A DNA stretch of 64,000 bases from a virus, in the IMG/VR virus record IMGVR_UViG_3300036985_002546, positions 7,812 through 71,811 of that record. One strand, written 5' to 3'. A program made the position numbers and the translations under genes. Positions 6,960-55,961 of the stretch are shown here, in pieces (the first letter of the stretch is position 1; the number at the start of each line of letters is the position of its first letter). The notes beneath the pieces are model-generated. The model was not told the DNA's origin, made no database searches, and worked only from the letters and a program-made list of their open reading frames with translations.

Positions 6960-7023
6960 GTGTATTTTATTTCCTGTTAGTTGGTTGTGGCGATTTCAAA
7001 GATACTTTGTAATATACTAGTAA

Positions 7024-7052: not shown

Positions 7053-7070
7053 GAAGTAGTTCAAAGATTT

Positions 7071-7367
7071 TCAATGACCTACAACGTTATACACCACTAT
7101 ATTTGATAGTGGTCCCGGTCCTGTATACTGACTGCCTGCTGTGTCAATTGTTACAGCTAGCCAGTATACATTGTACCCCAAGGTAGTATCATATCCTCTC
7201 ATTCTATACACCAGCGAACCTCCTGACCCTATGGTAGAGCCGCTTATAGCTGCTGATGATGTAGAAGATACTTGTCCGGACATAAAATCACCACCAGCAC
7301 CATCTTGCACGCCACCAAATGTTGCGTCTATTTGGTTTGATACATAGTCACCATTAACATCGGCCAT
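7071..7367 (-). CDS. Type-C small array paralog (98 aa)
   Basis: YRMRGYDTTL...VYW...QYTGPGPLSNI. Confidence 0.8.
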   Translation of the reverse strand: MADVNGDYVSNQIDATFGGVQDGAGGDFMSGQVSSTSSAAISGSTIGSGGSLVYRMRGYDTTLGYNVYWLAVTIDTAGSQYTGPGPLSNIVVYNVVGH

Positions 7368-7370
7368 AGA

Positions 7371-8366: not shown

Positions 8367-8375
8367 AATTAGTCC

Positions 8376-9572: not shown

Positions 9573-10766
9573 GTTTCTACCCTTCTTCCTTATTTATTGT
9601 TGAGTATTTCTTCTGCAAGAGGCAGAACACTCTGCCCAAGTTTGAGTATATTCAAGGAAGAGTTTGTATCTCTGTCGTGTATTGTATTACAATTTGAACA
9701 TACCCATTCTCTTATTCCAAGACCTGCGATACCTTTCGGCCTCGACTCAGGTAGAGTACCACAAGTCGAACAGGTTTGGGTTGTAAATTTTTCGTTGACA
9801 ATTTTGAAATAAGCTTGATGCCTACTGGCTTTATACTCAAGCATAGTTCTAAACTTGTACCAACTTGAATTCATTACACTTTTAGCTAAGTGTGTCTTTG
9901 CAAGTTTGGTAGAGTTTACATTGCCTACGATTATTGTTTTGTTTTCTGCTGCTATTTTATGACTAGCTTTGTGTAAGAAATCCTTTCGTATATTTTTAAT
10001 TTTAGCGTGTATTGCTTTTACTCTTTTTTTATTGTGTGCTCTTTGTGCTACAGCTAATTTCTCTTCGTATTTGTAGTAAGTCTTTGGATTCTCTATCTTT
10101 TCTCCGGTAGACAAGGTAGCGAGTGTCTTTAATCCTAGGTCTATACCTACTTCACCTGTACCTGTAGGTAAATTAGGTACATCTACATACAAACATACAT
10201 ACCACTTACCTTGTGAATCCTCTACAAAACTACCTCCAGTAACTTTGTTTGGAATAGGTCTACGTTTAATTCCAAATAACTTAAAGATATTACCTAGATA
10301 GGATATAGAGTCTGTACCTACTTGTCTAGACTGTTCTTGGAAAGGAATCCAACCTAGAGATTTCTTGGATCCAAAACTAACTCTAAATTTAGGACATTTC
10401 TTGTGTTGATTTCTACTCTGTACAAATTGTTTGCATATACATTTAGATGTCTGTGCGTGTATTCCTAATTCTTTCGAGGTACCTTTTGTTAGAGATCCTA
10501 AATCAAAAAAACTAAGCCAATGTGTATTAGATCCTTGCTTATACAACAATTGTGTTTTCTTTTGTGTAGCTACACAAAAATTCCACACCTGATTTACAGA
10601 AAAAGACATACGTGACAAGATATTAATCTTGTTTTTGTCCTTAATTCTATATTTATAAGTAAGAATCATAGTTATGACTAATATATTAAAACAGTATTAA
10701 TAACGCAGTGTTTACTATACCTTAATTTTCAAAATTTAAACTTACTAGAGCATATAAATTCATGTT
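9562..10766 (-). mobile_element. TnpB-only insertion bounded by a 14-bp imperfect direct repeat
   Basis: TATAAATTCGTGTT (9562..9575) versus TATAAATTCATGTT (10753..10766); no tnpA; interrupts the D-E junction that is intact at 5972/5973. Confidence 0.75.
9590..10669 (-). CDS. tnpB: TnpB RNA-guided endonuclease (IS200/IS605/IS607 family)
   Basis: N-terminal TYKYRI, GIDLGLK (RuvC-I), VNEKFTTQTCSTCG and CSNC zinc finger, HDRDTNS (RuvC-III); GGCAGA-GTGT-TCTGCC hairpin in the 3' end where the omega-RNA is expected. Confidence 0.95.
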   Translation of the reverse strand: MILTYKYRIKDKNKINILSRMSFSVNQVWNFCVATQKKTQLLYKQGSNTHWLSFFDLGSLTKGTSKELGIHAQTSKCICKQFVQSRNQHKKCPKFRVSFGSKKSLGWIPFQEQSRQVGTDSISYLGNIFKLFGIKRRPIPNKVTGGSFVEDSQGKWYVCLYVDVPNLPTGTGEVGIDLGLKTLATLSTGEKIENPKTYYKYEEKLAVAQRAHNKKRVKAIHAKIKNIRKDFLHKASHKIAAENKTIIVGNVNSTKLAKTHLAKSVMNSSWYKFRTMLEYKASRHQAYFKIVNEKFTTQTCSTCGTLPESRPKGIAGLGIREWVCSNCNTIHDRDTNSSLNILKLGQSVLPLAEEILNNK

Positions 10767-40752: not shown

Positions 40753-42195
40753 TTAGCGAGTAAGAGATCCAATGTTTACGTAGCGTAACCATTTCCGTGC
40801 GGCGAACAGGATCGGGGTCCCATACAGTAGGATCATCCAGCGGAAGGCAGGACCCATTACAGCAAGGTCCATACGTAACATCGGTAGTAACTGACGGAAG
40901 GTTAATACCGATGGAGTCATTTCACCCATGTAAGCAATCGAGGTGAAGGGGAGGAGGAAGTTTACATCGTGGAATGCTGTGGTTCCCGATGGTGCTTGCG
41001 ATGCAGCAGGTAGTTGACCTACGAGGGAGAACTTCGAAAGATCAGAACCTACAGCCGAACTTCCTGCACGTGCAACCGTGCGGTAGACACGGAAGAACTC
41101 TGGAGGATATGTGCCGATTGTGCCTGCGTTGGTGATTGTTAAGTCAATCCGACGATATGCATTCTTCTCAGACTGAGTGATGTCTTGGCTGGAGCCAATT
41201 AGTACAGGAGCGGACTCACCAAAGCGGTTAGCTGCGGTGACTGCGTAAGCGTAGTTATTGGTACCAGTGAATCCACCTTTGTTGAAGTTACCGTTGGTAA
41301 CGCCAGTATTTACAGTGGATGCAACGCTAGCCGGTGTGGCAGGTGCGTTAGCGGAGGTAGCAGCGGCGTGAGGAGAAGGAAGTGCCTTTAGGAATACGTT
41401 TGGATTTAACTCCATTACGCCTGCTTGTGTCATTACGGAATTGACAGAGAGACCGACCATTCCGTTCTGAGGAGCAGGAAGACTGATACGCTCTTTGGGA
41501 TAGAAACCCTTTACTAGGTCTGAGTTGTTGCGATTGCCGAGCCAGAGATCTGTTGGATAAGCAAAGTTATCCACGAGCTTCTGGGCGCCTTCCTCGATGT
41601 CAGCTTCTTGAAGAGCTTCACCTTCTAGATCAATGAAGTTCGAAGGATCGATTAGTGCGTCAAGACCGTTCCATTGTTGTGCTTCACCGCTGTAAGCGAG
41701 CGAGGCATCGCCTTGGAATAGAGACTTTTCAATGCGCTCTAGGAGCCAAAGAATACCGTTCTGATTCTCAAGTGCGATTACATCTCCGTGTGCTGGGTGC
41801 ACAACGGTCATGGGGTGGTCAACTTCTCGTGTGGTACCAATGTACTTGATTAGTGCGGTCCGACGTGCATAGTTACTGTCCTGTGCAGGAGGTAATTCAC
41901 CAGGCATTAGGAATGCCGAGGAATCCGAACCGTAATCAATTAATTGGGTGTACTCTTCGTTGGTGCTGAATGCTGGAGACTTGGGAATCTTCTTCCACAT
42001 TTTGATGTGGTGCGCCGAGTAAGTTACGACCTTCAACGAACCTTCTAGTGATTGTACGCGTAAAGCGGAACCACCAGTCTGATTCACGATGTCATAGCCA
42101 GGCGTAAGGGCTTTGGCTAGTTCCTGTACATCTGTAGAGGTACCAGTACCAAATCCATTAAGAGTCCCACCATTGTAATTCTGGAGACCGATCAT
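40753..42195 (-). CDS. Major capsid protein (480 aa; true start MIGLQN)
   Basis: ELAKALTPGY, GGSALRVQSLE..LK..T, IEKSLFQGD, YGTPIL.A.RKW as in SPO1/Twort-like capsid proteins; RBS AGGAG before ATG 42195. Confidence 0.93.
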   Translation of the reverse strand: MIGLQNYNGGTLNGFGTGTSTDVQELAKALTPGYDIVNQTGGSALRVQSLEGSLKVVTYSAHHIKMWKKIPKSPAFSTNEEYTQLIDYGSDSSAFLMPGELPPAQDSNYARRTALIKYIGTTREVDHPMTVVHPAHGDVIALENQNGILWLLERIEKSLFQGDASLAYSGEAQQWNGLDALIDPSNFIDLEGEALQEADIEEGAQKLVDNFAYPTDLWLGNRNNSDLVKGFYPKERISLPAPQNGMVGLSVNSVMTQAGVMELNPNVFLKALPSPHAAATSANAPATPASVASTVNTGVTNGNFNKGGFTGTNNYAYAVTAANRFGESAPVLIGSSQDITQSEKNAYRRIDLTITNAGTIGTYPPEFFRVYRTVARAGSSAVGSDLSKFSLVGQLPAASQAPSGTTAFHDVNFLLPFTSIAYMGEMTPSVLTFRQLLPMLRMDLAVMGPAFRWMILLYGTPILFAARKWLRYVNIGSLTR

Positions 42196-42223
42196 TTGTA
42201 TACTCCTTTTTCTTTTAGTGGGG

Positions 42224-43273
42224 TTACTTGCCCGCCACAGCGGCTTGGACAAGAGCTAGTGTTGATGGCGAAATGTCGCCACCTGTTTCATATTTAACTA
42301 CATCGAGAGGATGAAGTTTATTGCTCTTTACTAGGTCACACATTACGTCTACGATTTGGCTCTTAGCCATGCTCTCAGTAGATAGGTCTAGACCACCAGG
42401 TCCAAAACTCTTATTCATTACTTGAAGACGGCTCTTAGGCGCGCCTACAGGAGATGAAACTTCCTGAATTTGAGCTTGCGAGGTGCCTGCAATGTGCTGA
42501 CCGATACCAGCAACGGCTTCAGCAATCGACTTCGAGAACTCACCTTGATTAGAGGCAAATCCTTGAAGAGCGTTTTCTAGACGCTCGATACGATTGAATA
42601 CTGGAGCTAGCGACTTGTTGACCTTAGCAACTACACCAGCCTCTACACCAGCAAGACCCTCACCAATGGCGCGAGTAACCTCAAAGAGGATAGGCGACAT
42701 TTCAATACCTTTACGTAGATTGGTAGAATTATTTACTGCGTTAGTAAAAGATTTCTTAGCGTCAGTGCCATCACCATCTAGATCTTCATCTGTCGTATCT
42801 TTGTTTGGATTCGTTTCCGGAACTTTCTTCGAATCACTCTGAGTGCCCGAAGCAGGCGCAGGAGAGGGCTTAGTAGAAGCCTTTGCCACGTCCTTTTCGT
42901 CTTCATCTTCATCTTCTTTTTCAAATGGAAAACCCTTTTTTACTGCCCATGCTTCAGCAGAAGTAAGCTTCTGACCCTTAGCAATCTTGTTGCCGATTAG
43001 GGTAAGAGGGTTGGTGTTCTTTACAATAGCAACTTCAGCCGGAGTAAGAGCTTTGCTCTTAGCGACTTTCGAAGCTAGTGCTTTCTTTACACCGTTGTAG
43101 TCAGTACCATTCTCGTCGATGCCATCATCATGTTCATCGACATCTTCTTGGGATGTTCCTGCCCAAGTACCCGGATTCGAATCAGAAGGGGTAGCGAAAA
43201 GCTGGGTTTGACCAGTGCCTTTGGCTAACCGTTCGAGACGATTCAGGGAAGCAGCGAAGTCTTCAGTCTTCAT
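42224..43273 (-). CDS. Capsid scaffolding protein
   Basis: Between protease and capsid gene; acidic/helical; many K-S/K-A sites. Confidence 0.75.
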   Translation of the reverse strand: MKTEDFAASLNRLERLAKGTGQTQLFATPSDSNPGTWAGTSQEDVDEHDDGIDENGTDYNGVKKALASKVAKSKALTPAEVAIVKNTNPLTLIGNKIAKGQKLTSAEAWAVKKGFPFEKEDEDEDEKDVAKASTKPSPAPASGTQSDSKKVPETNPNKDTTDEDLDGDGTDAKKSFTNAVNNSTNLRKGIEMSPILFEVTRAIGEGLAGVEAGVVAKVNKSLAPVFNRIERLENALQGFASNQGEFSKSIAEAVAGIGQHIAGTSQAQIQEVSSPVGAPKSRLQVMNKSFGPGGLDLSTESMAKSQIVDVMCDLVKSNKLHPLDVVKYETGGDISPSTLALVQAAVAGK

Positions 43274-43282: not shown

Positions 43283-44080
43283 CTATCGTTTTAGTTGATT
43301 TACAAAAATGGCGTTGGCAAATGCCCGCGCCATGGGAAGTGAGTAACCCTTTGATTTCACCATGAAATCAACAGCCTCACCATAATTTACATCAGCAGAC
43401 TTAAAGGTCTGTACTATCGGTTTACCCTCTAAAGATTGGGGTATTAGTAAGCTACCCATACCGTTTACCGATAAAGCTTTCTCTTCCTCTTCTAGCCGTG
43501 CTTTATTGGCTAAACCTTTTGGACAACAAGTACCTTTACACGTTGCGCTACCTGGATTTTTGCACCAAGGATTTTCATTCAAAGATTTCATAATCTCTGC
43601 ATAACTATGTGTATTTACAGGGGAAGCAGTAATTGCTATGTCCTGCAACCAGCACTTGACAATAGTATTGCCATCGCGCTTTAGAACCTTACCCTGTATA
43701 GAGAAGCCAACCTTTCGGTTTGACTTGTTCTCTTCAAGTGTCTTAAGGTGTTCCCACCAGTATTCTGCCCGTTCTTTACCCTTGTATAAGAACGCACTGA
43801 TCCATAAACCGTCTGGAGTAGCTTTACAGTCTAAAGGCTCTCCAACCTTGTTCTCAGGACCATCTTTGTGATCATCATTGATATAACCGTATTTTAAGAA
43901 ATACGATGTATCAATGCCTTTTTGAGTTACAACTTCACCTTGTAAATCACGATGATCCGTTGATGCAACGCCTTGAATTCTACGACGTTTGTCTGTAGAT
44001 TCAGCTTTTGCAAACGATTCTATCGGTGCAAAAAATTGAAAGGTATCTGTTGTTAAGTGTGTGTGCTCTTGATGTTGCAT
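43283..44080 (-). CDS. Prohead protease (HK97/herpes-type fold)
   Basis: IQGVAST...D.QGE.V.Q.GID, IN.DH, GFSIQG, IAITASPVN. Confidence 0.93.
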   Translation of the reverse strand: MQHQEHTHLTTDTFQFFAPIESFAKAESTDKRRRIQGVASTDHRDLQGEVVTQKGIDTSYFLKYGYINDDHKDGPENKVGEPLDCKATPDGLWISAFLYKGKERAEYWWEHLKTLEENKSNRKVGFSIQGKVLKRDGNTIVKCWLQDIAITASPVNTHSYAEIMKSLNENPWCKNPGSATCKGTCCPKGLANKARLEEEEKALSVNGMGSLLIPQSLEGKPIVQTFKSADVNYGEAVDFMVKSKGYSLPMARAFANAIFVNQLKR

Positions 44081-44181: not shown

Positions 44182-44397
44182 TCATTTGTTTAAGTAAAGA
44201 GGTGGTCCAGAATCTAATGTATCATCAACCACTCTAAAGGGTAGTTGTACTTCTGCGTTACAACTTTTGCACACAGTATAAAGTAAGTTACCTTTACGTA
44301 ACCACACTTTACCGTGAATTTTTTCTTCTGAAGGAGACAATGATTTAGCTACGACTTTGTCACAATTTGGACAGAGTAGCGTTGCACAATTAATCAC
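44182..44397 (-). CDS. Small zinc-ribbon protein
   Basis: CPNC...CKSC; immediately upstream of the protease gene. Confidence 0.7.
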   Translation of the reverse strand: MINCATLLCPNCDKVVAKSLSPSEEKIHGKVWLRKGNLLYTVCKSCNAEVQLPFRVVDDTLDSGPPLYLNK

Positions 44398-47300
44398 TAT
44401 TGGGTTACCTCGTTATTTAGTGATTTGTACGTAGTTTCATCGACTTCAGCGTGTTCATGTATAGGATGAAAGTGTAGCCAACCAGAAAATTCTTTTTCTT
44501 CGTATGTACGATCTGTTAAGTCCATGGATACGTGAGGTATTATGTAGGTATTAGGAACACTTTCTATTTCTTGTGGTGGCTTCTTTTTTGAATATGATTG
44601 CTGTAGCAACTCAACAACAATTGGATCTACTAACGAAGCTAAAATTAACTCTACTGTTTGGTGTGGATCTACGTCAGCAGCTAGGCCATAACCCCATTCA
44701 TGTGCTATCGTACGACACGCTCTGTCAATGGCAGTTTCAAATGCAGCACCAGCAGAAAGATAACGAATGACGTCCCTAGCAAATGTCATTGTAGCATGAT
44801 ATGTCTGTATAGAATACAAACTAATTCCTTGAGATTCTACAACTCTAGATAAATAATGAGGCCCTATTCGTCTACGTAATCCATTATCGTCAGGTTTACC
44901 GTCTTTATCCTGCTTTGGTATAGCAAATAAAGGTTCGTCTTTTTGTTTTGTGCTTACTAACTCAGACAATATGGAACGAATTCGTTCATCTACGTGTATT
45001 TTACGTGTACCTAACTGTACGACACTATCTGACACTCGTACTTCAGCTGGAGTTAGCGAGGCTAGTTCAGTTACTCGCATACGTCCTTGATCCAACAACG
45101 CAAGACACACAGCAGTAACTTTATCCTTTATTAAATAACTGTTAAATAAATCTATATAATACTGTCTAAATGACGTAATTCTCGCGTCAAATAACGCATT
45201 TTGTTGATTTATAGCAAGTTTAGGGATTTGTTTTATGTCACTGTGTACATAAGTGTGTTTATGCTCGCCCGAGTCTGGATCTCGCCATCTAGCTGCCCAT
45301 AAGTTCTTAGGATCAAATTTATTATAATTTTGATTCCATTCTATTGTTGAAGGATCTTGTGCCGCTGGTGCTCTAGAAAGTTTTTTACCTTCTGGTGTGA
45401 AATACTCTGGATTTTGATCTATAGAAGGTTCAGATGGGTGAACTTTAGCCTCTCCATGAGCTGAATGCCTATCAGCGTGCCCAGTTGGTGCGTTAGTGTA
45501 TCGTATAAAGTTATTGGCTTGGTCTTTGTAATAGTGCTTTGGATGGTCTTCATCACCTTCCATGTGGCTGTAGGTGTGAGACGGATCTACGTTTTTATCC
45601 CGAGTTAGGATACCTAACGCTGCTTTACTTAATTCCCACTCCGCATAAGCTAGTTGAGCTAATTCCAAAGATTTCCCAAAATCAGGTTCTACGAAGTGTT
45701 CTCCGTGTTTCTGAGAATGCATTATCTGTTTAAGTTGCTGAATTGCAGCATTTTGTTGTTCTTTTGGAACACTATTTACAATTTGATTGATATAGCCTGC
45801 ATATTGATCAGCGTGTCCAGACGCTAAACCAGGAGATCTACTAGACCAATCCTCAAGTGAACCTATTTGTGCATCTGCCCATCGTTCGATTGGTGTTTGA
45901 GCTTGAGAAGAACCCGCAAGAGTTGGTGTTTCTTCTCCAGACATTAGAGCTTCTTCTGGATTTAATAGGTGGGCCCTACCTTCAGATGCCTGAGAGATTA
46001 GATTAGGGTCATCTAGACGATTATAACCTTCTCCTGTTCTAGACATTACGTCCACAGGTGTTCCTAATGCTTCAGATATTAGTTCACCTTGTGGATTTTC
46101 ATCATTCTTTTCTGTATTAGGTATGTACGTAGCGCGTCGCATATACTGAAATAACTCACCACCCGCTCCAGCAATTAAACCTCCGAATGACTTGTGTTTG
46201 TATGGATCAAACCGGTCAATTGCTCTTGATATAGCTTTATAGGCAGGTGAATTTTCATCTGATAAACCGATTACTTGTGGTATTTTATACCCTTCGGATT
46301 CTAGTTTCGGATCATATCCTACCTGTGGTGGTAGTGTAGGACCTGTGCCTATTAGCCGAGACATCCAGTATTGCTGTTGTTCTGGATTTTTTCCTAAAAT
46401 AGGACTCTTTGATACTGCTTGCTTGGCCATTTTAACAATATAGGGCCAATACTGTTTAGCAACATCGTCAACAATATTTCTACGTTCTTCTGGACTTACA
46501 TTTAACTCAACTCTAGTACGCTTAAAAGTTCTAACACGTCCAGTTTTGTCTGTAACAACACTAACTTCTTCTTTTGGTCTCCATTGCTTACCACCAGTGC
46601 CTATAGCATTGCGTCGTATGCGATCTTCAAAAGAACCTGGAGTGATGTGAAATGCTTCTGAAGCAGCGCTTTTATCGGCTTCAGATTCGTTAGTACTTTC
46701 TGTAGGGGTACTCTGAACCGGTTCAATAGGCTGAGATTGTCCTTCAGGAGTATTTATAACAGTTGGAGTATCTGGTGTAAGTTCTACAGAACCAGCAGAC
46801 TCAATTTGTGTAGGAGTTTCAGGTGGAGTTCCTCCAGATAGACGCAACTCATCAGATAATTGTGTCTGTACGTATCTCTGTGCTAATTCCCTACTTTGTT
46901 TTTTTAGTATAGGAGCGTCAGGATTTTGTAAGTCAGTTACTTTCCACCTAAGTTTGTCTGGTGGTACTAATCCATCTTTTGTAATAGTCCCTACAATTGG
47001 TGAAATCGTATAACGTGCTTTACCGTCTAAACCTGGATAAGCTTCTGAATGACTCGATATAGCGTACCAAGCTTCAAAGTGTCCTTTACTCTTTGCGTGA
47101 AAAAGTACTGTTTTGTTGTCTGGATTAAAGACATCAAATTCTGTTTCACCTTTTTTGTTCTTTACGGGATGAATTTCTAGGTCTGGACCACCTTGCATGG
47201 GGTGTGTAATGGGAATTTTAGAACCTGCAGTTAACGCGGTGTTCATCCCGTGTTCGTAGTCGGACTTAGCCTGTTCTTCTGGATTTTCTGTTGTTGGAGC

Positions 47301-47519
47301 CGTCTCCGGTACATCCATAGAGTGTTCACGGGATAAATCTGTATATGCAGGTTGTTGTCCAGATCCGTGAGCAGCAGATGGCATCTGTGTGTATTGGTAT
47401 ACCCACCTTTCACCATTCCACTTTCGAGAGATGTATTTGCCACCTCTTGGTGGTCCCATGGGTTGTGCAGATTTTTGCAGTATTCCACTTTGTGGAAAGA
47501 GAATATCTAAAAAGTCCAA
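44397..47519 (-). CDS. Multidomain putative head-cargo protein: sigma70 region-2-like domain plus inactive-looking topoisomerase IB-like domain
   Basis: AISRAIDRFDPYKHKSF and NPEEAL (sigma-like); ARWRDP, AVCLALLDQGRMRV, LASL...V.V, QTYHAT, TIAHEWG, SLVDP (TopIB-like); RBS GGAGG before TTG. Confidence 0.65.
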   Translation of the reverse strand: MDFLDILFPQSGILQKSAQPMGPPRGGKYISRKWNGERWVYQYTQMPSAAHGSGQQPAYTDLSREHSMDVPETAPTTENPEEQAKSDYEHGMNTALTAGSKIPITHPMQGGPDLEIHPVKNKKGETEFDVFNPDNKTVLFHAKSKGHFEAWYAISSHSEAYPGLDGKARYTISPIVGTITKDGLVPPDKLRWKVTDLQNPDAPILKKQSRELAQRYVQTQLSDELRLSGGTPPETPTQIESAGSVELTPDTPTVINTPEGQSQPIEPVQSTPTESTNESEADKSAASEAFHITPGSFEDRIRRNAIGTGGKQWRPKEEVSVVTDKTGRVRTFKRTRVELNVSPEERRNIVDDVAKQYWPYIVKMAKQAVSKSPILGKNPEQQQYWMSRLIGTGPTLPPQVGYDPKLESEGYKIPQVIGLSDENSPAYKAISRAIDRFDPYKHKSFGGLIAGAGGELFQYMRRATYIPNTEKNDENPQGELISEALGTPVDVMSRTGEGYNRLDDPNLISQASEGRAHLLNPEEALMSGEETPTLAGSSQAQTPIERWADAQIGSLEDWSSRSPGLASGHADQYAGYINQIVNSVPKEQQNAAIQQLKQIMHSQKHGEHFVEPDFGKSLELAQLAYAEWELSKAALGILTRDKNVDPSHTYSHMEGDEDHPKHYYKDQANNFIRYTNAPTGHADRHSAHGEAKVHPSEPSIDQNPEYFTPEGKKLSRAPAAQDPSTIEWNQNYNKFDPKNLWAARWRDPDSGEHKHTYVHSDIKQIPKLAINQQNALFDARITSFRQYYIDLFNSYLIKDKVTAVCLALLDQGRMRVTELASLTPAEVRVSDSVVQLGTRKIHVDERIRSILSELVSTKQKDEPLFAIPKQDKDGKPDDNGLRRRIGPHYLSRVVESQGISLYSIQTYHATMTFARDVIRYLSAGAAFETAIDRACRTIAHEWGYGLAADVDPHQTVELILASLVDPIVVELLQQSYSKKKPPQEIESVPNTYIIPHVSMDLTDRTYEEKEFSGWLHFHPIHEHAEVDETTYKSLNNEVTQ

Positions 47520-47532
47520 AATTAGTCCTCCG

Positions 47533-48849
47533 TTACACGGTAGGTTTTAACGCCTGATTGTGTTGATTCTGTGAGGAATCCGGCGTTGACAAGTTGTTTA
47601 AGGATCCGTCCGTTGATTCCAAATTTGGCGCATTCCCAGTAAGTTCGGGGTTTTGTTCCGAAATTGGATAACCATTGTTGGAGTCGTTCGGTTGCTCCAG
47701 TTCCATATCTTCTTGCAAAGGTAGTATGTTTTGAGCTACCCCTAACAAATCCCGTTGATCCATCAGGAATCCTATTATCTCTTCCCGTGCTGATTCTGGT
47801 GTTTGTCCTTGGAAGTTGCATCCGGGTCCCCATATCTCACTAGCAATTTGCATTAATTCTGCGTCTTTAGAGTCTCCAATTCTACTCAATATAGCACGAA
47901 CACCGTCAAACGTCTCTACATCTATTGGAGGTGGTCCCATCATACCAGGGAACATAGACATACCAGGCATACCGGGCATAAAAGCCTTCTTAACTGCACG
48001 TGTTTTAGGTCCGTCTGAAGCTATCATACGCTTAAAGGCGTCTATAGTAGTCTCAGTCATTTCACCGAAAAACTTAGGAGTATCATAATGTTCCAGATAT
48101 GCAGCTTTAGCTTCTCTAGGAGAAATAAATCCAAGCATAACCTTATCTTCGTCATACTGCGTAAACTTTGGCGCTTTTAGTTGGTGAATAACAAACACCT
48201 TATTAGACTCGTCATCGGTACCAACATAAACGTCTATGCTATCACCATCATTACCTTCAGTACGTTTAATGAACCCATAAGGATAGTTCATTTTAGTTTT
48301 TCTCGTGGTTCTAGTTCCTGGGTCGTACCAGTGTCTATACTCACCCTTATCAGTTTCTATACCGATAGAAAAACCTTGGAATTGTATAGTTCGTTTTACT
48401 TTTCCATTACTTTTTAGGGCTTTCCACACTAAATCTGTAGTTTGTCTAACTTCAAAACAATCAAAATGTTCAGAAACAAACGACTTATCTACCGCTTCAA
48501 TTTGCTTTAGTTTGGTGTAGTATTCAGCATCTTCTTTTAGATGGTCTACAGCAATCTGTTGAGCAACTTTAGGATCATTAGTATGTTCTAACTCGTGCTC
48601 TGTGCCAGTTTTTAATTCTTTTTTATCAAAATCTTCTGCTGGACCTTTTAACTTTTTTATTTCCTGCTGTTTACTAGACCAAAGAATACAGTGTCCTTTA
48701 GTAGACACCTTAGCATCTTGTTGTCCGTCACTCAGTAAATTACAAGTTTCAATTTCTGACCTAAAATTAACGCAAGTATCACAAACTTCTTCAGAAGTTG
48801 TGTATAGAACTTGTGTAGGTGTAGGCCGTTTAGTAAGAAGATCCGCCAT
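47533..48849 (-). CDS. Multidomain protein: HiPIP-like 4-Cys domain, DUF5661-like domain, phage inorganic-pyrophosphatase-like domain
   Basis: CDTCVNF..C..VSTKGHCILW; G.EHELEHT.D...A..IA.DHL.E...YY.KL; YGFI..TEG.DGD.IDVYVG...YDEDKVMLGF; start MADLL with RBS GAGGA. Confidence 0.75.
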   Translation of the reverse strand: MADLLTKRPTPTQVLYTTSEEVCDTCVNFRSEIETCNLLSDGQQDAKVSTKGHCILWSSKQQEIKKLKGPAEDFDKKELKTGTEHELEHTNDPKVAQQIAVDHLKEDAEYYTKLKQIEAVDKSFVSEHFDCFEVRQTTDLVWKALKSNGKVKRTIQFQGFSIGIETDKGEYRHWYDPGTRTTRKTKMNYPYGFIKRTEGNDGDSIDVYVGTDDESNKVFVIHQLKAPKFTQYDEDKVMLGFISPREAKAAYLEHYDTPKFFGEMTETTIDAFKRMIASDGPKTRAVKKAFMPGMPGMSMFPGMMGPPPIDVETFDGVRAILSRIGDSKDAELMQIASEIWGPGCNFQGQTPESAREEIIGFLMDQRDLLGVAQNILPLQEDMELEQPNDSNNGYPISEQNPELTGNAPNLESTDGSLNNLSTPDSSQNQHNQALKPTV

Positions 48850-49159
48850 CGGAGAGTTCCTCATCTAACCACGATCCAAGTCCATCGTTTGGTTCTGTTG
48901 GTATAGAAGAGGATTGTATTCCTTTGGCTCTCATAAAGTCTAACAGTGACTGAAGTTGTTGTGGACAACCAAGTTCTTGTGCTTCCTGTACTAACTCTTC
49001 TAATTCCTTAACCGGCATTTCTTCTAAGTCAGTAGGATCATACACAGAATCACCAATCATAGGAGGATCTACAGAGTCATCTATAAGTCCATCAACTCCG
49101 TATTGAAGCTGAACGTGTTCTGGTGATAATGGCATGATTTGCCCGAATAATAGTCCCAT
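48830..49159 (-). CDS. Acidic hypothetical protein
   Basis: 109 aa ORF in operon. Confidence 0.55.
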   Translation of the reverse strand: MGLLFGQIMPLSPEHVQLQYGVDGLIDDSVDPPMIGDSVYDPTDLEEMPVKELEELVQEAQELGCPQQLQSLLDFMRAKGIQSSSIPTEPNDGLGSWLDEELSDGGSSY

Positions 49160-49171: not shown

Positions 49172-50734
49172 TTATTGTTGCATTAAACCTAAAAATTGGT
49201 TCATATTGTCTTGTTGTGGACGTTGCTTAATAACTGAGGGTTCAATTGCTGTCTGTTGTGATCCTGCGTTAGTAGGTGGTGCGTTAATTCCTATATTTTT
49301 TGGTGGAGTCGAGAAGGTCTCAAGCTGTTTTGTAGAAGAACCGGATGAAGGCATTTGGGGTGGCGACGTCATGGCTGCTTGAGGAGGAGCCGGTTTTTGT
49401 AACATTCCTGGAATAGGACCTTGACGATCTGCACCAGAAGGTAATCCTACTGGAGGTTTATTCTGAAATGGAGTCATTTGTGGTACTGGTTTAGGTGCTG
49501 CTAATGCAGGAGGAGCACCAGGACCTGTACCTGGAGGTGTTGAAGCTAGAGACGTACTAGTACTGTCTGGTTTACTAAAAATACCCATTGCTTGTGGTCC
49601 AATACCACCTACACCTTGTTGCATGTTTTGAGGAGAACCAAACCCTTGACGACCACCTTGTGGTTCGTTAGAACGCGGTACTTCACCACGTTGCGCTACT
49701 TGCTCTGAAACACGAGCCATAGGACTCATGACATCCTTTGCTAGCTCACGATGTATCTGTGCGTGTTGTGCATGCATAGGATCTTCCTGTGCGTGTTCAT
49801 CGTGTAGATTCGCAGCTGCTTCGTGATCATCTTTACCGAAATCTTTATGTTCCGGGTGGAATGGATCGTTGTGTACAGTCAAACCGTTTGGAGTGAATCC
49901 TAACGGAGGTTGTTGTGGCTGTTGCTGTTCTTGAGAAGCGGATGTGTTATTAGGGATTTCGCTCTCGCCTGGTTGTTTGTTAGGTGTAGACTGTTGTTGC
50001 TGTTGTAGCGGAACTTTTGGTACACCAAAGTTCTTAAGAATATCAATAGCTTGTCTAAAACTCTTGTTATATGTGGGGGCGCTAAAGTTTTGATTAGACC
50101 CGTGTGCGTGTGTTGGGTAGTGTTGTTTCCCTGTAGAAGTGATGGTATACTTTCCACCGCGTGGACCAATACCTTGTTTTGCTGCATTAAGTTGTTGTTC
50201 TTGTCCTGGAGTTGTTCCACCTAATGGCGTTATTGGTGGTGGTCCGGAAATCAAAGGAGATGCCGACGAAGCAGCATGGATAGCAGCTAATACTTCCGCA
50301 GAGTGTGGATCTATAACTTTACTTTGCTGAGACGTTGGAGCCTGTTGATCACTATGCCCATCACCTAATTGTCCTGCATCCATGAGCAGCGAATCATATA
50401 CTCTGCTATCAGACACAACATCACCAAATAGCGGTTGATCATTTGGATTTGATTCTTGTTGAATTAAATCCTGCATAGATGTGTCTGGGTTAGCTTGGTT
50501 AGGTTGTTTATTTTGTGCGTGATTTAGAAATAAATTTGGACCTGGATCTTTAGGAGCCTTTAGTTGAGAAGGTTGTCCTTGAAAAGATCCTGGTCTAGTT
50601 ATCGGAGGTGGTTGTGATGCTTGTCTGTATGGAGAACCTTGTGTTGGAGCAGGTTGATTTGGTAAAACTGGGATAGTGGATTGGGGTAATGCTTTATCTA
50701 CCCAGTTACATGGTTTTCGACTTCCGTGGTCCAT
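49172..50734 (-). CDS. Pro/Gln-rich intrinsically disordered putative head protein
   Basis: Low complexity; GPRGGKY motif; His-rich helix HEAAANLH...HAQHAQIH. Confidence 0.65.
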   Translation of the reverse strand: MDHGSRKPCNWVDKALPQSTIPVLPNQPAPTQGSPYRQASQPPPITRPGSFQGQPSQLKAPKDPGPNLFLNHAQNKQPNQANPDTSMQDLIQQESNPNDQPLFGDVVSDSRVYDSLLMDAGQLGDGHSDQQAPTSQQSKVIDPHSAEVLAAIHAASSASPLISGPPPITPLGGTTPGQEQQLNAAKQGIGPRGGKYTITSTGKQHYPTHAHGSNQNFSAPTYNKSFRQAIDILKNFGVPKVPLQQQQQSTPNKQPGESEIPNNTSASQEQQQPQQPPLGFTPNGLTVHNDPFHPEHKDFGKDDHEAAANLHDEHAQEDPMHAQHAQIHRELAKDVMSPMARVSEQVAQRGEVPRSNEPQGGRQGFGSPQNMQQGVGGIGPQAMGIFSKPDSTSTSLASTPPGTGPGAPPALAAPKPVPQMTPFQNKPPVGLPSGADRQGPIPGMLQKPAPPQAAMTSPPQMPSSGSSTKQLETFSTPPKNIGINAPPTNAGSQQTAIEPSVIKQRPQQDNMNQFLGLMQQ

Positions 50735-51462
50735 TAGCCTACTCCATTTAATGTGCTTGACCGTCCTTCAACAGACCCACCTAGACAAACATATGACGTC
50801 AAAATGTTGTTTGCAATTTGTTTTTTTCTGTCCAAGGAAACCTCCGTAGTTTCATATAATATACGTATTATAGTTAATGCTTGTGTACCCTCAATAGAAA
50901 AATTAAATATATTTTTTCTAGGACGAACAGTAGCTTCTGTATAAACAATACCTTTAATAAACATTCTAAATTGAGCTAACAAATCATGTGAACCATATAG
51001 CTTAAGAACAGGGTAACCCCTAGTATGCATAAATATAGTGCCGTTTCCATCAATAACACCACGCCAAAAGTCACTACTACACACTACAGAATCCGATGCT
51101 TTAGCAACCATACTTTTTCTAGGAACCACCCCGTATAGGGCTAGGTCATTCACTAATTTTGAACTCCTAACATGTATACTACACCTATTTCCTGTGCCTA
51201 ATGTAGTAACACGCCTATAATGCCTTATTTTATGTTTAGACCCTAAAAATGTCTTGAATTTAATTAGATGGTCTGTATCTATGTCACTAAGACATAGGGA
51301 TATTGTTGGTGCCCCTACTGAGTAATTAACGCACCCATCTGCCATTAAAAAACCAATCCAGTAACAAGATTCAGGTGTTAATGAACTAAATGCATCGTCC
51401 TTTAACGGAAAACGACTACGCCAAGCAGATGTGTTACAGCCTTGTGGCTGACCTGTCAACAA
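50734..51462 (-). CDS. Free-standing two-motif LAGLIDADG homing endonuclease
   Basis: YWIGFLMADG and FWRGVIDGNG motifs, GVVPRKS, SLDRK; AGGAGG before the TTG TTG start. Confidence 0.92.
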   Translation of the reverse strand: MLTGQPQGCNTSAWRSRFPLKDDAFSSLTPESCYWIGFLMADGCVNYSVGAPTISLCLSDIDTDHLIKFKTFLGSKHKIRHYRRVTTLGTGNRCSIHVRSSKLVNDLALYGVVPRKSMVAKASDSVVCSSDFWRGVIDGNGTIFMHTRGYPVLKLYGSHDLLAQFRMFIKGIVYTEATVRPRKNIFNFSIEGTQALTIIRILYETTEVSLDRKKQIANNILTSYVCLGGSVEGRSSTLNGVG

Positions 51463-52162: not shown

Positions 52163-53830
52163 TTACTTCAAGTTAGTTTTCATACCACCAAACGGATCGA
52201 ATGGACTTCTCATAAACTCTTGACTGCTTCTACAAATTGGGCACACTGAGTTACTTTTGTGCAGTAATCCGTGTACAACACAAGATTTATATGTATTGTG
52301 TGTTCTAATCTGTTCATCTTCAACTACATTGTTCAGTGTATCACGAATTGGGTCGGCAAGAGAGGTATACATGCGATTTGTTTGAGTAGTAGCTGATCTA
52401 AGTATAGCATTCGGATCATATGAATCAGACCGCAGATAAAAGGGTGTAGAAGATAATGGAACACTGTACCAAGACTTTTTGGTTGTAGGTGGTGTAGCTG
52501 TGTTGTTCTCAGGAAATGGTAGTGGTGCTTGAGGTGCTATTGGAGGTTTTTTGTATCCAAATTGCCCACCTTTACCTCTGTTAGGATTACCTGTACCTGG
52601 TCCTCCTGGACTACCTCTACCTCGTTTTTGTGCCGACATTGGAGTAGGTGTAGCCTTTGGTGCAGCAATAGGTGTAGGTGTAGGTCTTGGAGCGGGTGTA
52701 GGAGCAGGTGCGGAAGGTCTTGGAATTACAGCAGGTTTTGGTGCTGCTTGTGGTGCTTGAGGTAGCGCAGGTCTCGGAATCTTTACCGTTTGTGGAGAAT
52801 TTGCAAACTCATTTACGGTCTTAGGTGCCGTCTTAAAGTCATTTGTGGTCCTAGGTGCCGTCTTAAAGTCATTGGTGGTCTTAGGTGCGTTCGCAAAAGC
52901 ATTAGAGGTAGCAGGAGCAGGTGCTGCTATAGGTTTACTTGGTGGTACAAGAGCCGGACCTATGTTACTACTATGAACTTGAGGTAATGCAGGACCAATA
53001 TTTCCTCCAAAGTTTTCCGACTGAGAAGACATATCTACAGGTTTATTAGTTGGAGCTAATTTTAAATTAGCAGGCATTTTTGGTGCAGGTGGAGTTGCAG
53101 GACCTTGTGGCACTAATGGAGCTAATTTAGTTGTCGGTGGTGCACTAATAGGTGAAGCTGCTTGTGTAGATTGTTTATTCCACCCAGCTCCTGGTCCTAC
53201 CGACGGAGGCGGTGGTTGTGCTGGTGCGGCAGCAGCAACCTGATCCATAAAATGTGGACCAACTGTTGGAGGAGTACTAGGTACAGACGGTTCCGATCGG
53301 GGTGGTAGAGGTATGGACTGCGGATTATACTGAACCCCTGGAACGTGTACACCCTCTTGTGGATTTAATGCTTGTTCTGCATCCTGAACCTGCTGTTCTT
53401 TGAACGATCCTCCTCTACCCATCATACGTCCTACAGTACGTGGTGCTTGAGCAGCAGCACTAATTACTGTATTGGGTGCCTGTAGTTGAGAAGAACCGGC
53501 TTCAGAACCCATACCGTAACCAATATTGTAACCAATTCCAAGTGGATTGAAAGCGTACTGTGAGTTAGGACCTACACCTCCTACAGCCTTTTTAATTTTA
53601 CTGCAAGAACAATTAAGACCTTTCCCACAACTACACTCAATACCTTCTCCTTTATTAATCAATAATTCCAGTAGTTTCAAATCTGAAGAATTGCTTGATT
53701 TTTTAGTTTTTGCTTCGCGTTGTACATCTAGCGCAATCGCAACCGCTTGTTCCTGTGGTTTACCTGCACCTAACTCCCGTTTAATATTAGTTCCCACGGC
53801 AGAATCTTTTTTGCTGTGTATTAATGGCAT
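52163..53830 (-). CDS. Pro/Ala-rich disordered putative head protein
   Basis: N-terminal MPL....K..AV..NI..E...GKPQ.QAVAIAL module familiar from small phage proteins; C-terminal C..H...H....C..C. Confidence 0.65.
   Translation of the reverse strand: MPLIHSKKDSAVGTNIKRELGAGKPQEQAVAIALDVQREAKTKKSSNSSDLKLLELLINKGEGIECSCGKGLNCSCSKIKKAVGGVGPNSQYAFNPLGIGYNIGYGMGSEAGSSQLQAPNTVISAAAQAPRTVGRMMGRGGSFKEQQVQDAEQALNPQEGVHVPGVQYNPQSIPLPPRSEPSVPSTPPTVGPHFMDQVAAAAPAQPPPPSVGPGAGWNKQSTQAASPISAPPTTKLAPLVPQGPATPPAPKMPANLKLAPTNKPVDMSSQSENFGGNIGPALPQVHSSNIGPALVPPSKPIAAPAPATSNAFANAPKTTNDFKTAPRTTNDFKTAPKTVNEFANSPQTVKIPRPALPQAPQAAPKPAVIPRPSAPAPTPAPRPTPTPIAAPKATPTPMSAQKRGRGSPGGPGTGNPNRGKGGQFGYKKPPIAPQAPLPFPENNTATPPTTKKSWYSVPLSSTPFYLRSDSYDPNAILRSATTQTNRMYTSLADPIRDTLNNVVEDEQIRTHNTYKSCVVHGLLHKSNSVCPICRSSQEFMRSPFDPFGGMKTNLK
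52787..52903 (-). repeat. In-frame 30-nt tandem repeat (about 4 units, N.F..AP.T.)
   Basis: NAFANAPKTT NDFKTAPRTT NDFKTAPKTV NEFANSPQTV; boundaries approximate. Confidence 0.8.
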
Positions 53831-53840: not shown

Positions 53841-55961
53841 TTACTGTTTATTCAGACCAGCATGGTCTGCATACTGAGTGTTTGGATCTGCACTATCCTG
53901 TTCACTAGCATCCGGTTGTGGCTGCTGTTGTGCAGATTGTTGAAGAGCTTGTTGGTATACAGGATTAAGCACAGTATCACCACCTGGTAGAGGCGGTAAT
54001 CCGATAGACACGCGACCTTCATTCAGAGTCTTGTAAGATGAAATTTGCTCTACTAACATTTGATGTTTTTCAGTTTCCGATAATTCATCTAGACCTACAA
54101 ACTCAAATGCAAAATGGTCGTCAATCTTGTCTATTATATTTCTATTAAGTAGTTTTGCCATAAAACGAAGTAATGGCTTTAAACCACGATCTCTAGAGGC
54201 TTTAATTTTCCATTCTTGTGAAGATTCGAACAGCGGAGTTTGTTGTTGTCCTCCGTGCATATCAAAGTTCAATTCAGCAGGATCAATTTGATACACTGCG
54301 GTAGATAATTTTATTAAATAATCTAGCCATTTACCAAATTCCATTTCTGAATTTGATTTAGCTAAATCCACCCACTCTAAACCTTCTGTTTGTAGTATTG
54401 GTGTGGTCCAACTACTTTCCACACCTGACGCTTGAGCAGCCCATTGTCTTCTAAAACCTTCTAGTTGTTCTTGTGTAAAATTATCACCTTTTAAGTTTAA
54501 AATTCCTTTAGCTTGTGTGCCGTGGGAAAAAAACCGACGATTATATAATTCTGTGAACAAATGTGCCGTAACTACTGTTATTAATTGCTCTAATTCGCCA
54601 TATCCGTAACCTTGAATATAAATATCACTCCGTGGATTACGTACACCAAATGCTAATTCATCAGAACTGTATACGTTTTCTATTTGTCCGTTTATTATTT
54701 GTACATAAGAAATAGGAGCTTTTCCACCTGATGAAGGTACTCCATATTCTCTTCCTTGGTACAGGTTAGCGAACCTAGCTGGCATGGACGGTACAAAGCC
54801 AGATCTATCGTGGTAGCTCGCGTTTACACCTACATATCGATCATCTGCTGCAATTCTTATAGTTGATGCATCAACAGTCAAAAATTCAAACGGAATATTT
54901 AATCGATCAGGAACAATTTCGAAACAACAGTTGTGGCTTACAAATCCGTTAGCTATATAACTGTGGTCTTCTTCCACCTCTAAGTTGAACACAGGTAGGT
55001 TTTCTACCCACTCCTTAGATACCTTTCCTATTTTGATATAGAAATATTCATCTTGACTGTCAGTAACAGAATACTTAGGCTTCGGATAGCAGAGATAGTG
55101 GTCTTCCGTTAGATTCTCTGCATCCACCCACTCTGGTTTTATATTCTTTTCTCTATATGGGGTCAGTCTAAACCACTTTTCAGTTATTGCTAAGAACGGA
55201 TGTTCTGCTGTTGCACTAATAGACTGCGAACCAGATTTTAATGTAATAAGGTCCCCAGTGTAGTTGCTGTGTTTCTTAGCCACAACAGTACGAAGATTAC
55301 CTGTGTGTGTTCGCACTACATCACCAATCTCTACACTCTCAATAGGTGTAGGCGCCCCATTAACACCCTCAACCATAGTACCCGCAGGCAAACATTGGTC
55401 AAAAAGTAGGCTGTCACGCGTCATTTTTCGTAGAAAAGTCTCAAAGTCATCGCGTTGTACATTACTGTACGGATTTCTCTCTGCTTTGCCACAACGCATA
55501 ATGAAGTCTTCTAACTCTTTAATAAAGGCAACTTCAGCCGGTGTTGTAGTGTGATCAGGATCTTTATGCTTAACCACAAATCCTAGTGATTTAGTCCATC
55601 TATATGGTTGAGCAAAAGTAGCAACTTGTGAACAACGTGTGTTAATAATTGCAGATATAATTGATAATTGACCTGCAATTCTCTTTAAAACATCATAAGT
55701 TAGGCTAAATCTACGATCTTTATACCCAAGACTATACTGCAACGCAAGAGGATCATGCATCCATGATTTTTGCGATCTATCTGCATCTGAGTTAGGTAAC
55801 TGTTTCCATGATTTTTCTAGTTCTTTACGTACTAACGCAGGAATGTGTGCAGTAGCTGATTGGGCAGCTACAACACTTTTTACTACATCTTCCATATCAA
55901 AAGAAGATGTATTTTTTGCAGTCCTACGATTTTTAGTCGTGTTTCTCTGGTTAGTTGCCAT
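53841..55961 (-). CDS. Portal protein (intein-containing)
   Basis: AIINTR..QV..F, RNPRSD....GYG..ELE, FF.HG...KGIL, MEF.KW..YL......YQIDP.E.NF, S.DRGL.PLL.F. Confidence 0.93.
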   Translation of the reverse strand: MATNQRNTTKNRRTAKNTSSFDMEDVVKSVVAAQSATAHIPALVRKELEKSWKQLPNSDADRSQKSWMHDPLALQYSLGYKDRRFSLTYDVLKRIAGQLSIISAIINTRCSQVATFAQPYRWTKSLGFVVKHKDPDHTTTPAEVAFIKELEDFIMRCGKAERNPYSNVQRDDFETFLRKMTRDSLLFDQCLPAGTMVEGVNGAPTPIESVEIGDVVRTHTGNLRTVVAKKHSNYTGDLITLKSGSQSISATAEHPFLAITEKWFRLTPYREKNIKPEWVDAENLTEDHYLCYPKPKYSVTDSQDEYFYIKIGKVSKEWVENLPVFNLEVEEDHSYIANGFVSHNCCFEIVPDRLNIPFEFLTVDASTIRIAADDRYVGVNASYHDRSGFVPSMPARFANLYQGREYGVPSSGGKAPISYVQIINGQIENVYSSDELAFGVRNPRSDIYIQGYGYGELEQLITVVTAHLFTELYNRRFFSHGTQAKGILNLKGDNFTQEQLEGFRRQWAAQASGVESSWTTPILQTEGLEWVDLAKSNSEMEFGKWLDYLIKLSTAVYQIDPAELNFDMHGGQQQTPLFESSQEWKIKASRDRGLKPLLRFMAKLLNRNIIDKIDDHFAFEFVGLDELSETEKHQMLVEQISSYKTLNEGRVSIGLPPLPGGDTVLNPVYQQALQQSAQQQPQPDASEQDSADPNTQYADHAGLNKQ
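54930..55394 (-). mobile_element. Mini-intein (155 aa) in the portal protein
   Basis: Q|CLPAGT block A, TAEHPF block B, VFNLEV..DHSYIANG block F, SHN|C splice junction; no endonuclease domain. Confidence 0.93.

Follow-up and report, generated by a model that had tools for sequence, protein, structure and literature searches.

A predicted phage capsid-cargo protein that pairs a sigma region 2-like domain with a topoisomerase IB fold lacking the canonical catalytic residues

We examined a protein encoded in a 64,000-nucleotide stretch of viral DNA (positions 7,812 to 71,811 of IMG/VR record IMGVR_UViG_3300036985_002546; hereafter the window), which is part of a linear 71.8-kb virus record estimated to be 42% complete. 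Its gene is the open reading frame (ORF) 44397..47519, with 1040 open codons and a stop on the minus strand, and we refer to its product as P0001; the window features located below lie on the same strand. The C-terminal part of P0001 has the predicted fold of a type IB topoisomerase (TopIB) from which most of the canonical catalytic residues are missing, an internal domain resembles region 2 of sigma-70 factors, and the gene stands in the structural module of a contractile-tailed phage, as identified by Pfam and PHROGs. We give an even chance to the reading that P0001 is a capsid-cargo protein, cut by the prohead protease, that would act by binding and not by catalysis. Binding is preferred over catalysis because neither borrowed module seems, in this lineage, to have kept its classical chemistry.

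The TopIB-like module covers residues 633-1025 (44445..45623) and consists of an N-terminal beta domain followed by a catalytic-type domain (residues 765-1021, 44457..45227). An AlphaFold2 model of residues 636-1040, built on a 32-sequence alignment, reached a mean predicted local distance difference test score (pLDDT) of 92.7 and a predicted template modelling score of 0.90. When this model was compared with the PDB using Foldseek, the top match was TopIB of Deinococcus radiodurans (2f4q; E = 3e-9, 304 columns of the 309-residue chain), followed by human, archaeal and variola TopIBs and then by Xer and Cre recombinases. VIA-align placed the Deinococcus TopIB chains highest at Z = 19.8 and 19.7 (3m4a_A: Z = 19.8, root-mean-square deviation (rmsd) 2.7, 210 aligned residues), with human TopIB at about 17, variola at 16.4, archaeal at 16.2 and a vaccinia fragment at 12.6; tyrosine recombinases scored 8.4-11.7, under all TopIBs (12.6-19.8). 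A profile of the family that included distant members (A4) matched, among PDB sequences, archaeal TopIB (E = 6e-14) and the Leishmania (1.7e-6), vaccinia (1.8e-6) and variola (1e-5) enzymes, as well as the archaeal Xer recombinase 4a8e (E = 2e-4). With the whole-family profile (A3), TopIB was the only PDB match and no sigma factor was returned. P0001 on its own scored E = 0.13 against Pfam Topoisom_I (12 bits, below the cut-off of 23.7) and so does not belong to that family by sequence; 20 of 24 distant relatives matched it at E ≤ 0.01, 14 of the 24 above the gathering cut-off (best 1.2e-23). From the model, residues 633-1025 are a complete two-domain TopIB fold; an earlier reading made from the sequence alone had proposed a TopIB fold here. 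We also considered a relic of a tyrosine recombinase or integrase and rejected it on the fold ranking; the module is without the recombinase Arg-His-Arg-Tyr set and has Leu in the Tyr column.

The sequence-only reading had further held that the canonical TopIB chemistry is lost, and the alignments bear this out. The first catalytic Arg is kept as Arg815 (45075..45077), which aligns to the Arg in the segment AMRVG of archaeal 6z01 (R in 37 of 102 rows of the family alignment). The second is replaced by Gln905 (44805..44807), opposite the Arg of FRTY/LRTY in 6z01, 2b9s, 1a41 and 2h7f (Q in 41 rows, R in 20), and the catalytic His by Tyr944 (44688..44690), opposite His265 of variola TopIB (H in 47, Y in 11). 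In the family alignment, Leu963 occupies the Tyr column of the relatives' Ser-Tyr-Ile-Asp-Pro (L in 37 rows, Y in 15, F in 9), and this Tyr, going by the TopIB motif, we take to be the nucleophile; the codon of Leu963 (44631..44633) is the Leu codon of SLVDP, read 44633..44631, exactly as had been stated. At the catalytic Lys position, profile and PDB alignments showed that the Gly-Lys loop is deleted and a short Gly-Thr-Arg-Lys hairpin (residues 837-840, 45000..45011) is left, with Arg839 and Lys840 as conceivable substitutes for the Lys. Measured against the family profile, variola TopIB has the longer Gly-Lys loop as an insertion, and the loop is present in the relative P0055, where it aligns with Deinococcus TopIB. 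All the motifs quoted in the sequence-only reading (PYIVKMAK, AISRAIDRFDP.K..SF, YMRR, NPEEAL, QTYHAT, WGYG and SLVDP) were found in the ORF at the positions given there. By its residues, the TopIB-like module of P0001 is thus not expected to be an active TopIB.

These replacements are shared across a large part of the family. Among 79 modules complete over the catalytic columns, 55 had neither the second Arg nor the Tyr, 11 had the Arg only, 6 the Tyr only and 7 both, and the set Arg-Arg-His-Tyr occurred in P0055 and P0079 only. In a maximum-likelihood tree of the 79 modules, P0001 fell in a 39-member group all of whose members were without the second Arg and the Tyr (ultrafast bootstrap 87, approximate likelihood-ratio test 82), and forms with the Arg or the Tyr were concentrated in a separate 22-member group (100/100). 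The tree is unrooted, and we claim no direction of residue change from it; the loss of catalytic residues in the P0001 branch appears to be old and stable. The TopIB-like module is 38-48% identical to many relatives, and this high conservation argues for a retained function. A C-terminal tail motif (residues 1004-1022, 44454..44510) falls within the stretch that aligns with the C-terminal helices of bacterial TopIB. Its Glu1008 and His1021 were invariant in both dead and TopIB-like relatives, and Phe1011, Leu1015 and Pro1019 were nearly so, including in relatives with TopIB residues; no other feature is as well conserved across the family.

The modules also differ in charge. P0001 has an acidic TopIB-like module (isoelectric point (pI) 6.0, net -11), and over residues 740-1025 all 39 members of its group were acidic too (pI 5.1-6.73, median 5.82). 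The Arg-Arg-His-Tyr relatives P0055 and P0079 were basic (pI 9.55 and 9.64) and one further relative had a pI of 8.89, a rough comparison, as many segments of the other group are longer through insertions. Arg815 and many other basic residues were conserved among the four closest sequences. The sequence-only reading had pictured the module as a non-catalytic DNA clamp, and this picture is weakened because the module is acidic, like its whole group, whereas the Arg-Arg-His-Tyr relatives are basic.

The second borrowed module is a helical domain resembling sigma-70 regions 1.2 and 2 (residues 297-481, 46077..46631), which is basic (pI 9.5) and carries a beta-hairpin (313-339) inserted between its first helix and the helix resembling region 2.1. 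A model of residues 1-640 had a mean pLDDT of 76.5; it was confident at residues 25-230 and about 297-470, followed by a poorly predicted stretch and then a bundle at 541-640. The structure searches gave TopIB for residues 636-1040 (Foldseek and VIA) and sigma region 2 for about 290-482 (VIA). The latter matches were made with the domain as part of the 640-residue model. VIA listed 50 matches for it, 43 of which align with the helical bundle and 7 of which reach residues 290-482; 6 of those 7 were sigma-2 domains (Z = 5.8-7.3), namely SigB (8x6g_H; Z = 7.3, rmsd 2.7, 90 residues), sigma-28 (6pmj_F; 6.8), a sigma-70 fragment (1sig_A; 6.6), the SigE N-terminal domain (8b3z_A; 6.6, 80 of 80 residues), RpoS regions 1.2-2 (5h6x_B; 5.9) and WhiG (7lq4_A; 5.8). 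Foldseek of the same model against the PDB and BFVD returned nothing at E ≤ 0.001, and Thermus sigma-A chains appeared only at E = 0.1-0.5.

A chain of profile comparisons points the same way. Segments of 29 close family members aligned with those of six distant relatives over 93 columns (probability 97.9%, P = 3e-13), and the six distant relatives aligned with five E. coli sigma factors over 34 columns (88.6%, P = 2.7e-6); controls against a TopIB alignment gave 0.1% and 0.3%. Two distant relatives, P0079 and P0055, contain a very sigma-like stretch, Tyr-Asp-Pro-Ser-Lys-Gly-Trp-(Arg/Lys)-Phe-(Ser/Asn)-Thr-Tyr followed by Trp-Trp. P0001 retains Asp-Arg-Phe-Asp-Pro and is rich in Gly and Ala where the Ser-Thr-Tyr and Trp-Trp of region 2.3 stand in those two proteins. 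An ESM Atlas search with residues 290-485 gave 30 hits at about 0.9, 7 of them in a set whose listed cluster has 14% Sigma70_r2 members, which we treat as a lead only; a word-index search found no shorter relatives of the same residues, and no member of the Sigma70_r2 family was found in the window's own record. On the model and the profile chain together, we conclude that residues 297-481 derive from sigma region 2. The aromatic residues of region 2.3 serve promoter melting, and this ability has probably been lost here. P0001 does not appear to be a complete sigma factor, having neither Pfam membership nor the region-2.3 aromatics. The earlier assignment to sigma-70 region 2 thus holds for the fold and motif at 297-481, but NPEEAL, which it had included, lies outside the domain in an unconserved, low-confidence linker (pLDDT below 50 over residues 492-521).

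We then asked how widely these modules occur. An exhaustive HMMER search of 1.84 billion representatives recovered 106 relatives of P0001 at E ≤ 0.001, each a cluster at 50% identity (94 at 1e-10 and 54 at 1e-30). In a local search of the 108 family proteins, counting the query and a duplicate, the C-terminal part (about 637-1030) was matched by 103, the N-terminal part by 33 and the middle part by 16, rising to 37 for the middle with an iterated local profile. The TopIB-like module occurs in proteins of about 1000 aa like P0001, alone in proteins of about 390 aa, and inside proteins of 1100-1800 aa; the stand-alone relatives start at about residue 638 of P0001. Searches with P0001 found no family in PHROGs, no match by tblastn among 50,697 phage records and no PDB sequence by phmmer at E ≤ 10. 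Domains of the ART-PolyVal, S-adenosylmethionine lyase and Zeta-toxin types were found in relatives, and P0055 has a basic TopIB module, InPase and an S-adenosylmethionine lyase domain (E = 7.5e-8) on one polypeptide. Because the sigma-like and TopIB-like modules are also paired in relatives that keep TopIB residues, the pair may originally have served a transcription-coupled handling of entering DNA. Particular to the P0001 branch is that the TopIB fold is dead and acidic and the sigma-like domain degenerate.

To examine the genomic setting, we scanned IMG/VR with an alignment of the four closest proteins and obtained six related contigs. In the window, the gene order is portal with an intein, several unknown proteins, a DUF5661 and InPase protein, the 1040-aa gene, a 71-aa protein, protease, scaffold-like protein and major capsid protein, with sheath and baseplate genes farther along, past the capsid gene. 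The order portal, p555, p157, p520, InPase, 1040-aa gene, p71, protease, scaffold, capsid was kept in 6/6 contigs as far as the contigs reach, and this synteny from portal to prohead protease supports the head-module location proposed earlier. In Bacillus phage Nachito, a cultured relative from the SPO1-like Herelleviridae, the portal gene is directly followed by protease, scaffold and capsid. On this comparison of gene orders, the stretch of roughly 9.7 kb that separates the portal gene from the protease gene is a lineage-specific insertion, which we call the cargo block. The upstream neighbour of the 1040-aa gene is the DUF5661 and InPase protein (polyvalent-protein pyrophosphatase; 443 aa, 47533..48864, InPase E = 3e-35). 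In 19 of 24 distant relatives the TopIB-like module is followed by InPase within one polypeptide, and a fusion with InPase also occurs in 3 of 40 closer ones. Annotations in cultured coliphages list proteins with InPase as minor head or portal proteins, and the solved portal chain 9b41_L carries an InPase-like segment. In the parts of Iyer et al. (2017; PMC5512222) on which we draw, InPase is described only from phage-type, presumably packaged polyvalent proteins and is proposed to clear pyrophosphate, aiding early replication or transcription. P0001 shares the make-up of such proteins, with several unrelated effector-type domains on one polypeptide encoded by a virion-module gene, and is linked to their hallmark domains by InPase and DUF5661 in the adjacent gene and by InPase fused in relatives. 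The slot of the 1040-aa gene also holds extra genes in two contigs, which encode Zeta-toxin-like kinases, a protein resembling RelA/SpoT and one of 910 aa that matches a zincin (ATLF family); they lie between the orthologue of the 1040-aa gene and p71 (L001 10788-14977 and L002 6779-8649). Synteny, the fusion or adjacency of InPase and these slot genes speak, as context, for a possible delivery of P0001 in the virion. As a separate observation, in a 125-kb contig (L006 9193-10975) the TopIB-like module is a 341-aa ORF of its own, right after the InPase ORF, without the N-terminal and sigma-like parts.

The prohead protease of HK97 cleaves after Lys, and P0001 has candidate sites of this type between its parts. 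K616-S617 (45669..45674) is conserved as Lys followed by Ser, Ala or Gly in 28/41 family sequences, and K632-A633 (45621..45626), at the start of the TopIB-like module, in 35/41. The earlier proposal of Lys-Ser and Lys-Ala sites separating the parts stands for these two; a third site, K283-S284 in the variable linker, was kept in 2/41 only. Like sites occurred in 4/4 orthologues of several head-module proteins: Leu-x-Lys47-Ala-Leu near the N-terminus of the capsid protein, Lys19-Ala in p157, Lys18-Ser in p71 and Lys201-Ala in the protease. The scaffold-like protein has many sites of the Lys-Ala/Ser type. In the major capsid protein (40753..42252; identified by Pfam and PHROGs, with Lys47-Ala48 conserved in the orthologue alignment), similarity to cultured relatives starts at residue 41-42.

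From these observations we infer packaging, cleavage, delivery, docking on RNA polymerase and a target for the dead TopIB. P0001 would be made as a polyvalent-type protein in the head-assembly operon and loaded into the prohead, where the protease would cut it at K616|S617 and K632|A633, and the products would enter the host with the DNA. The basic sigma-2-derived domain may then dock on the RNA polymerase of the host, at the site on the beta-prime clamp helices to which sigma region 2 binds. The TopIB-derived module may serve as a non-covalent binder of a DNA structure or a protein partner, and both would act as infection begins, together with the pyrophosphatase encoded next to them. A bolder form of this reading, which we hold to be possible though doubtful, is that the SPO1-related lineage packs a transcription starter kit of host-type parts, namely sigma region 2, TopIB and pyrophosphatase, which has here evolved to pseudoenzymes, so that the sigma-2 remnant would dock on RNA polymerase, the acidic dead TopIB would bind a protein or a special DNA structure, and early control of the host would lie with injected binding modules instead of enzymes.

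Several results weigh against the capsid-cargo reading or against one of its parts. The sigma-2 scores (Z = 5.8-7.3) fall in the range that VIA flags as a common helical arrangement and are moderate evidence. P0001 had no sigma hit in Pfam, and hhalign of its region against the five E. coli sigma factors gave 19 columns, placed exactly at the junction of regions 2.2 and 2.3, at probabilities of 15% and 0.6%, which is not significant. Among the 64 relatives scanned, Pfam Sigma70_r2 was found in only 2 (P0071, 24.5 bits at a cut-off of 24; P0066, E = 3.5e-4), and the Trp-Trp of region 2.3 was missing in 33 of 35 family members, P0079 and P0055 being the only ones to have it. For region 4 there was no Pfam hit and no fold match among those listed, with residues 482-640 barely covered apart from the helical bundle. 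On the TopIB side, the PDB alignments did not reliably cover the Tyr column, the placement of the nucleophile following the TopIB motif, and the acidity of the module counts against general DNA binding, although a local basic groove may still exist. K632 is predicted to be part of a helix, where cut sites are unusual, and cleavage at the Lys-Ala/Ser sites is proposed with a protease specificity taken from their conservation. Finally, clues to the host were not found: no tRNA was detected in the window, and no relative or prophage of the gene was present among the 185,579 species genomes scanned.

Four other explanations account for parts of these data. P0001 could be an internal head protein of a core or scaffold-like kind, which would organise or neutralise packaged DNA or aid assembly and have no role after ejection. 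We regard this as unlikely: its location between the portal gene and the genes for protease, scaffold and capsid of each of the 6 related contigs, its Pro/Gln-rich low-complexity neighbours of 520 and 555 aa, and the resemblance of its Lys-Ala/Ser sites to the many in the scaffold protein fit such a role, but the sigma and TopIB folds, the InPase fusion and the co-location with Zeta-toxin-like and RelA/SpoT-like genes better fit host-directed cargo. An acidic module, moreover, would not neutralise DNA, and cultured relatives build heads without the block. A little less likely still is a decoy or inhibitor, in which the acidic TopIB-fold module would bind not DNA but a host protein (for example a defence nuclease, RNA polymerase or a nucleoid protein) and the sigma-like part would be an anti-sigma-style competitor blocking host transcription. 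That all 39 members of the group are acidic, against a pI of 9.55 and 9.64 in the Arg-Arg-His-Tyr relatives, is consistent with this, as are the strongly conserved surface motifs and the invariant Glu1008 and His1021 of the tail. The setting of polyvalent proteins is likewise one of conflict with the host, as far as the account in PMC5512222 goes. Net charge is a crude measure, however, and the conservation of Arg815 and many basic residues in the four closest sequences would fit a residual DNA groove.

The sequence-only reading had favoured a transcription-redirecting factor, that is, a minimal phage sigma that would redirect the host's RNA polymerase towards promoters of the phage. Sigma cascades are a known trait of SPO1-type phages, and the late sigma of T4, which consists of region 2 only, offers a likeness. 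The sigma-2-like fold and motif, the basic charge of the domain (pI 9.5) and a capsid protein 40-43% identical to those of SPO1-like phages all speak for it. Yet region 2 stands alone, region 4 was detected neither by Pfam nor by fold, and the Ser-Thr-Tyr and Trp-Trp of P0079 and P0055 are gone from P0001, which weakens this proposal to the point that we consider it improbable. Least probable of all is that the TopIB-like module is still an enzyme that uses another nucleophile (another Tyr, a His or water) on DNA or on a different phosphoester. Conserved Arg815, His908 (H in 76 of 102 rows), Asp965 (85 of 102), Glu1008 and His1021, the His found in the Tyr column of several relatives, and the company of the phosphoesterase InPase would suit such an activity; against it, three to four of the five canonical positions have changed together, the Lys loop is deleted and no alternative conserved Tyr stood out.

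The capsid-cargo reading places P0001 next to several known systems. Like the InPase polyvalent proteins, as these are presented in PMC5512222, it is multidomain, encoded by a head-module gene, linked to InPase and DUF5661, and presumed to be packaged and injected; it differs from those treated there in that both borrowed modules appear non-catalytic or degenerate. The main text of that paper uses none of the terms sigma, recombinase, integrase and TopoIB, and topoisomerase occurs in it once, in a reference title. A likeness in concept is offered by T4 Alt, which the same source names as prototype for packaged proteins that modify the host's RNA polymerase and which, like the protein proposed here, is head-packaged and acts on host transcription at injection (PMC5512222). 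Alt is an enzyme, an ADP-ribosyltransferase with no sequence or fold relation to P0001, whereas P0001 appears to act by binding.

With type IB topoisomerases (2f4q/3m4a, 1a41/2h7f, 6z01 and human Topo I), P0001 shares the two-domain fold (Z = 12.6-19.8), a Trp-rich segment before the catalytic domain, the first catalytic Arg and the Thr-Tyr after the position of the second. Unlike them, it has Gln, Tyr and Leu at the positions of the second Arg, the His and the Tyr, no Gly-Lys loop and an acidic instead of a basic module, and it carries in addition a conserved N-terminal segment (637-700) and the C-terminal tail motif. Tyrosine-recombinase-fold proteins have the same superfold (Z = 8.4-11.7), and the Arg815 segment, without the TopIB insertion, aligns with Xer 4a8e; the phi3T repressor SroF (9rgl_A) is, by its entry title, an example of the fold as a non-recombining DNA binder. 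P0001 differs from them in its clearly higher scores with TopIBs and in having the N-terminal domain of a TopIB. The likeness to sigma-70 regions 1.2-2 consists of the helical fold (80-96 aligned residues, with rmsd 2.7-3.4 in 5 of the 6 matches), an Ala-Ile-x-Arg-Ala-Ile-Asp-x-Phe-Asp-Pro motif at the junction of regions 2.2 and 2.3, and an insertion located where sigma-70 has its non-conserved region. In contrast to sigma-70, P0001 has no detected regions 3 and 4, about 45 extra residues between the helices resembling 2.1 and 2.2, no region-2.3 aromatics, and a domain embedded in a 1040-aa head-module protein.

In the literature on phage virion TopIB, injected sigma factors and polyvalent proteins, we found no description of a sigma- or TopIB-derived module in phage capsid cargo. 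Phage proteins that are packaged and co-injected decide the first minutes of infection, and few of them are understood. If the capsid-cargo reading is true, sigma- and TopIB-derived modules belong to the cargo of a widespread group of uncultured phages (106 clusters), and the repertoire of polyvalent proteins would extend to the machinery of transcription and topology, in parallel to the poxviruses, which carry a TopIB in the virion that helps early transcription. The dead acidic branch would also be a clean example, provided by nature, of a topoisomerase fold that has become a pseudoenzyme, with active-looking relatives in P0055 and P0079; what the fold does without its tyrosine becomes directly testable with these two as controls.

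The remaining parts of P0001 are less readily assigned. Its N-terminal domain (residues 25-230, 46830..47447) is beta-rich with two helices (pLDDT about 90), and it had no significant Foldseek match in the PDB or BFVD with the 1-640 model and no usable ESM Atlas hit with residues 20-235. At its start lies a conserved beta-hairpin motif (residues 22-45, 47385..47456; strands 29-34 and 39-44, pLDDT about 93), a possible capsid-loading tag, in which at least 90% of 41 sequences retain Y29, R32, W34, W39, Y41 and Y43. We rejected a tag common to all cargo genes, as the strict pattern was found only in orthologues of the 1040-aa gene; a shorter Pro-Arg-Gly-Gly-Lys-Tyr, like the hairpin motif, is present in the 520-aa neighbour. 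On the same tag idea, a profile built from residues 637-700 yielded no more than weak additional matches. An acidic disordered linker follows (residues 236-296, 46632..46814; pI 4.05, pLDDT below 50 over 247-287), which is not conserved. The helical bundle between the sigma-like and TopIB-like parts (residues 541-632, 45624..45899) matched only generic helical bundles in VIA (Z = 5.6-7.4) and ends in the conserved Lys sites.

The 1040-aa gene starts with TTG at 47519, 14 nt past the stop of the upstream InPase gene (47533-47535), with a Shine-Dalgarno sequence GGAGG (47527..47531) 7 nt ahead of the start. Its stop overlaps the GTG start of the 71-codon gene downstream (44182..44397), the product of which has a zinc-ribbon-like Cys-x2-Cys ... 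Cys-x2-Cys pattern and is kept in 6/6 loci just ahead of the protease gene. The prohead protease is encoded at 43283..44080 (phrog_1028, E = 5e-52). The capsid protein shares 40-43% identity with its counterparts in SPO1-like Herelleviridae, and the phage appears from its genes to be an uncultured myovirus distantly related to SPO1.

The upstream end of the cargo block is formed by the portal gene (53841..55961), whose product carries an intein (Pfam Intein_splicing, residues 228-344); the portal orthologues in the related contigs L003 and L006 are without it, aligning only up to residue 190 at most and again from about 336-345. Inside the block lie the two Pro/Gln-rich low-complexity proteins of 520 aa (49172-50734) and 555 aa (52163-53830) on the minus strand, and an endonuclease-like ORF (50734-51462, minus strand; phrog_4645, E = 4e-34). 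The latter is probably a homing endonuclease insertion, because its counterpart is missing from all 6 related contigs. At the far end of the window, a transposase-like ORF (9590-10669, minus strand; phrog_506, E = 4e-71) lies between the tail genes and an array at 130-9362 (minus strand), in which seven paralogues of about 330 aa each (sharing 34-60% identity) are interleaved with three paralogous ORFs of about 95 aa, with no PHROG match. An eighth ORF of like size (5973-6959) was unmatched to the other paralogues of about 330 aa. Possibly the array is a cassette for fibre or receptor-binding proteins together with chaperones.

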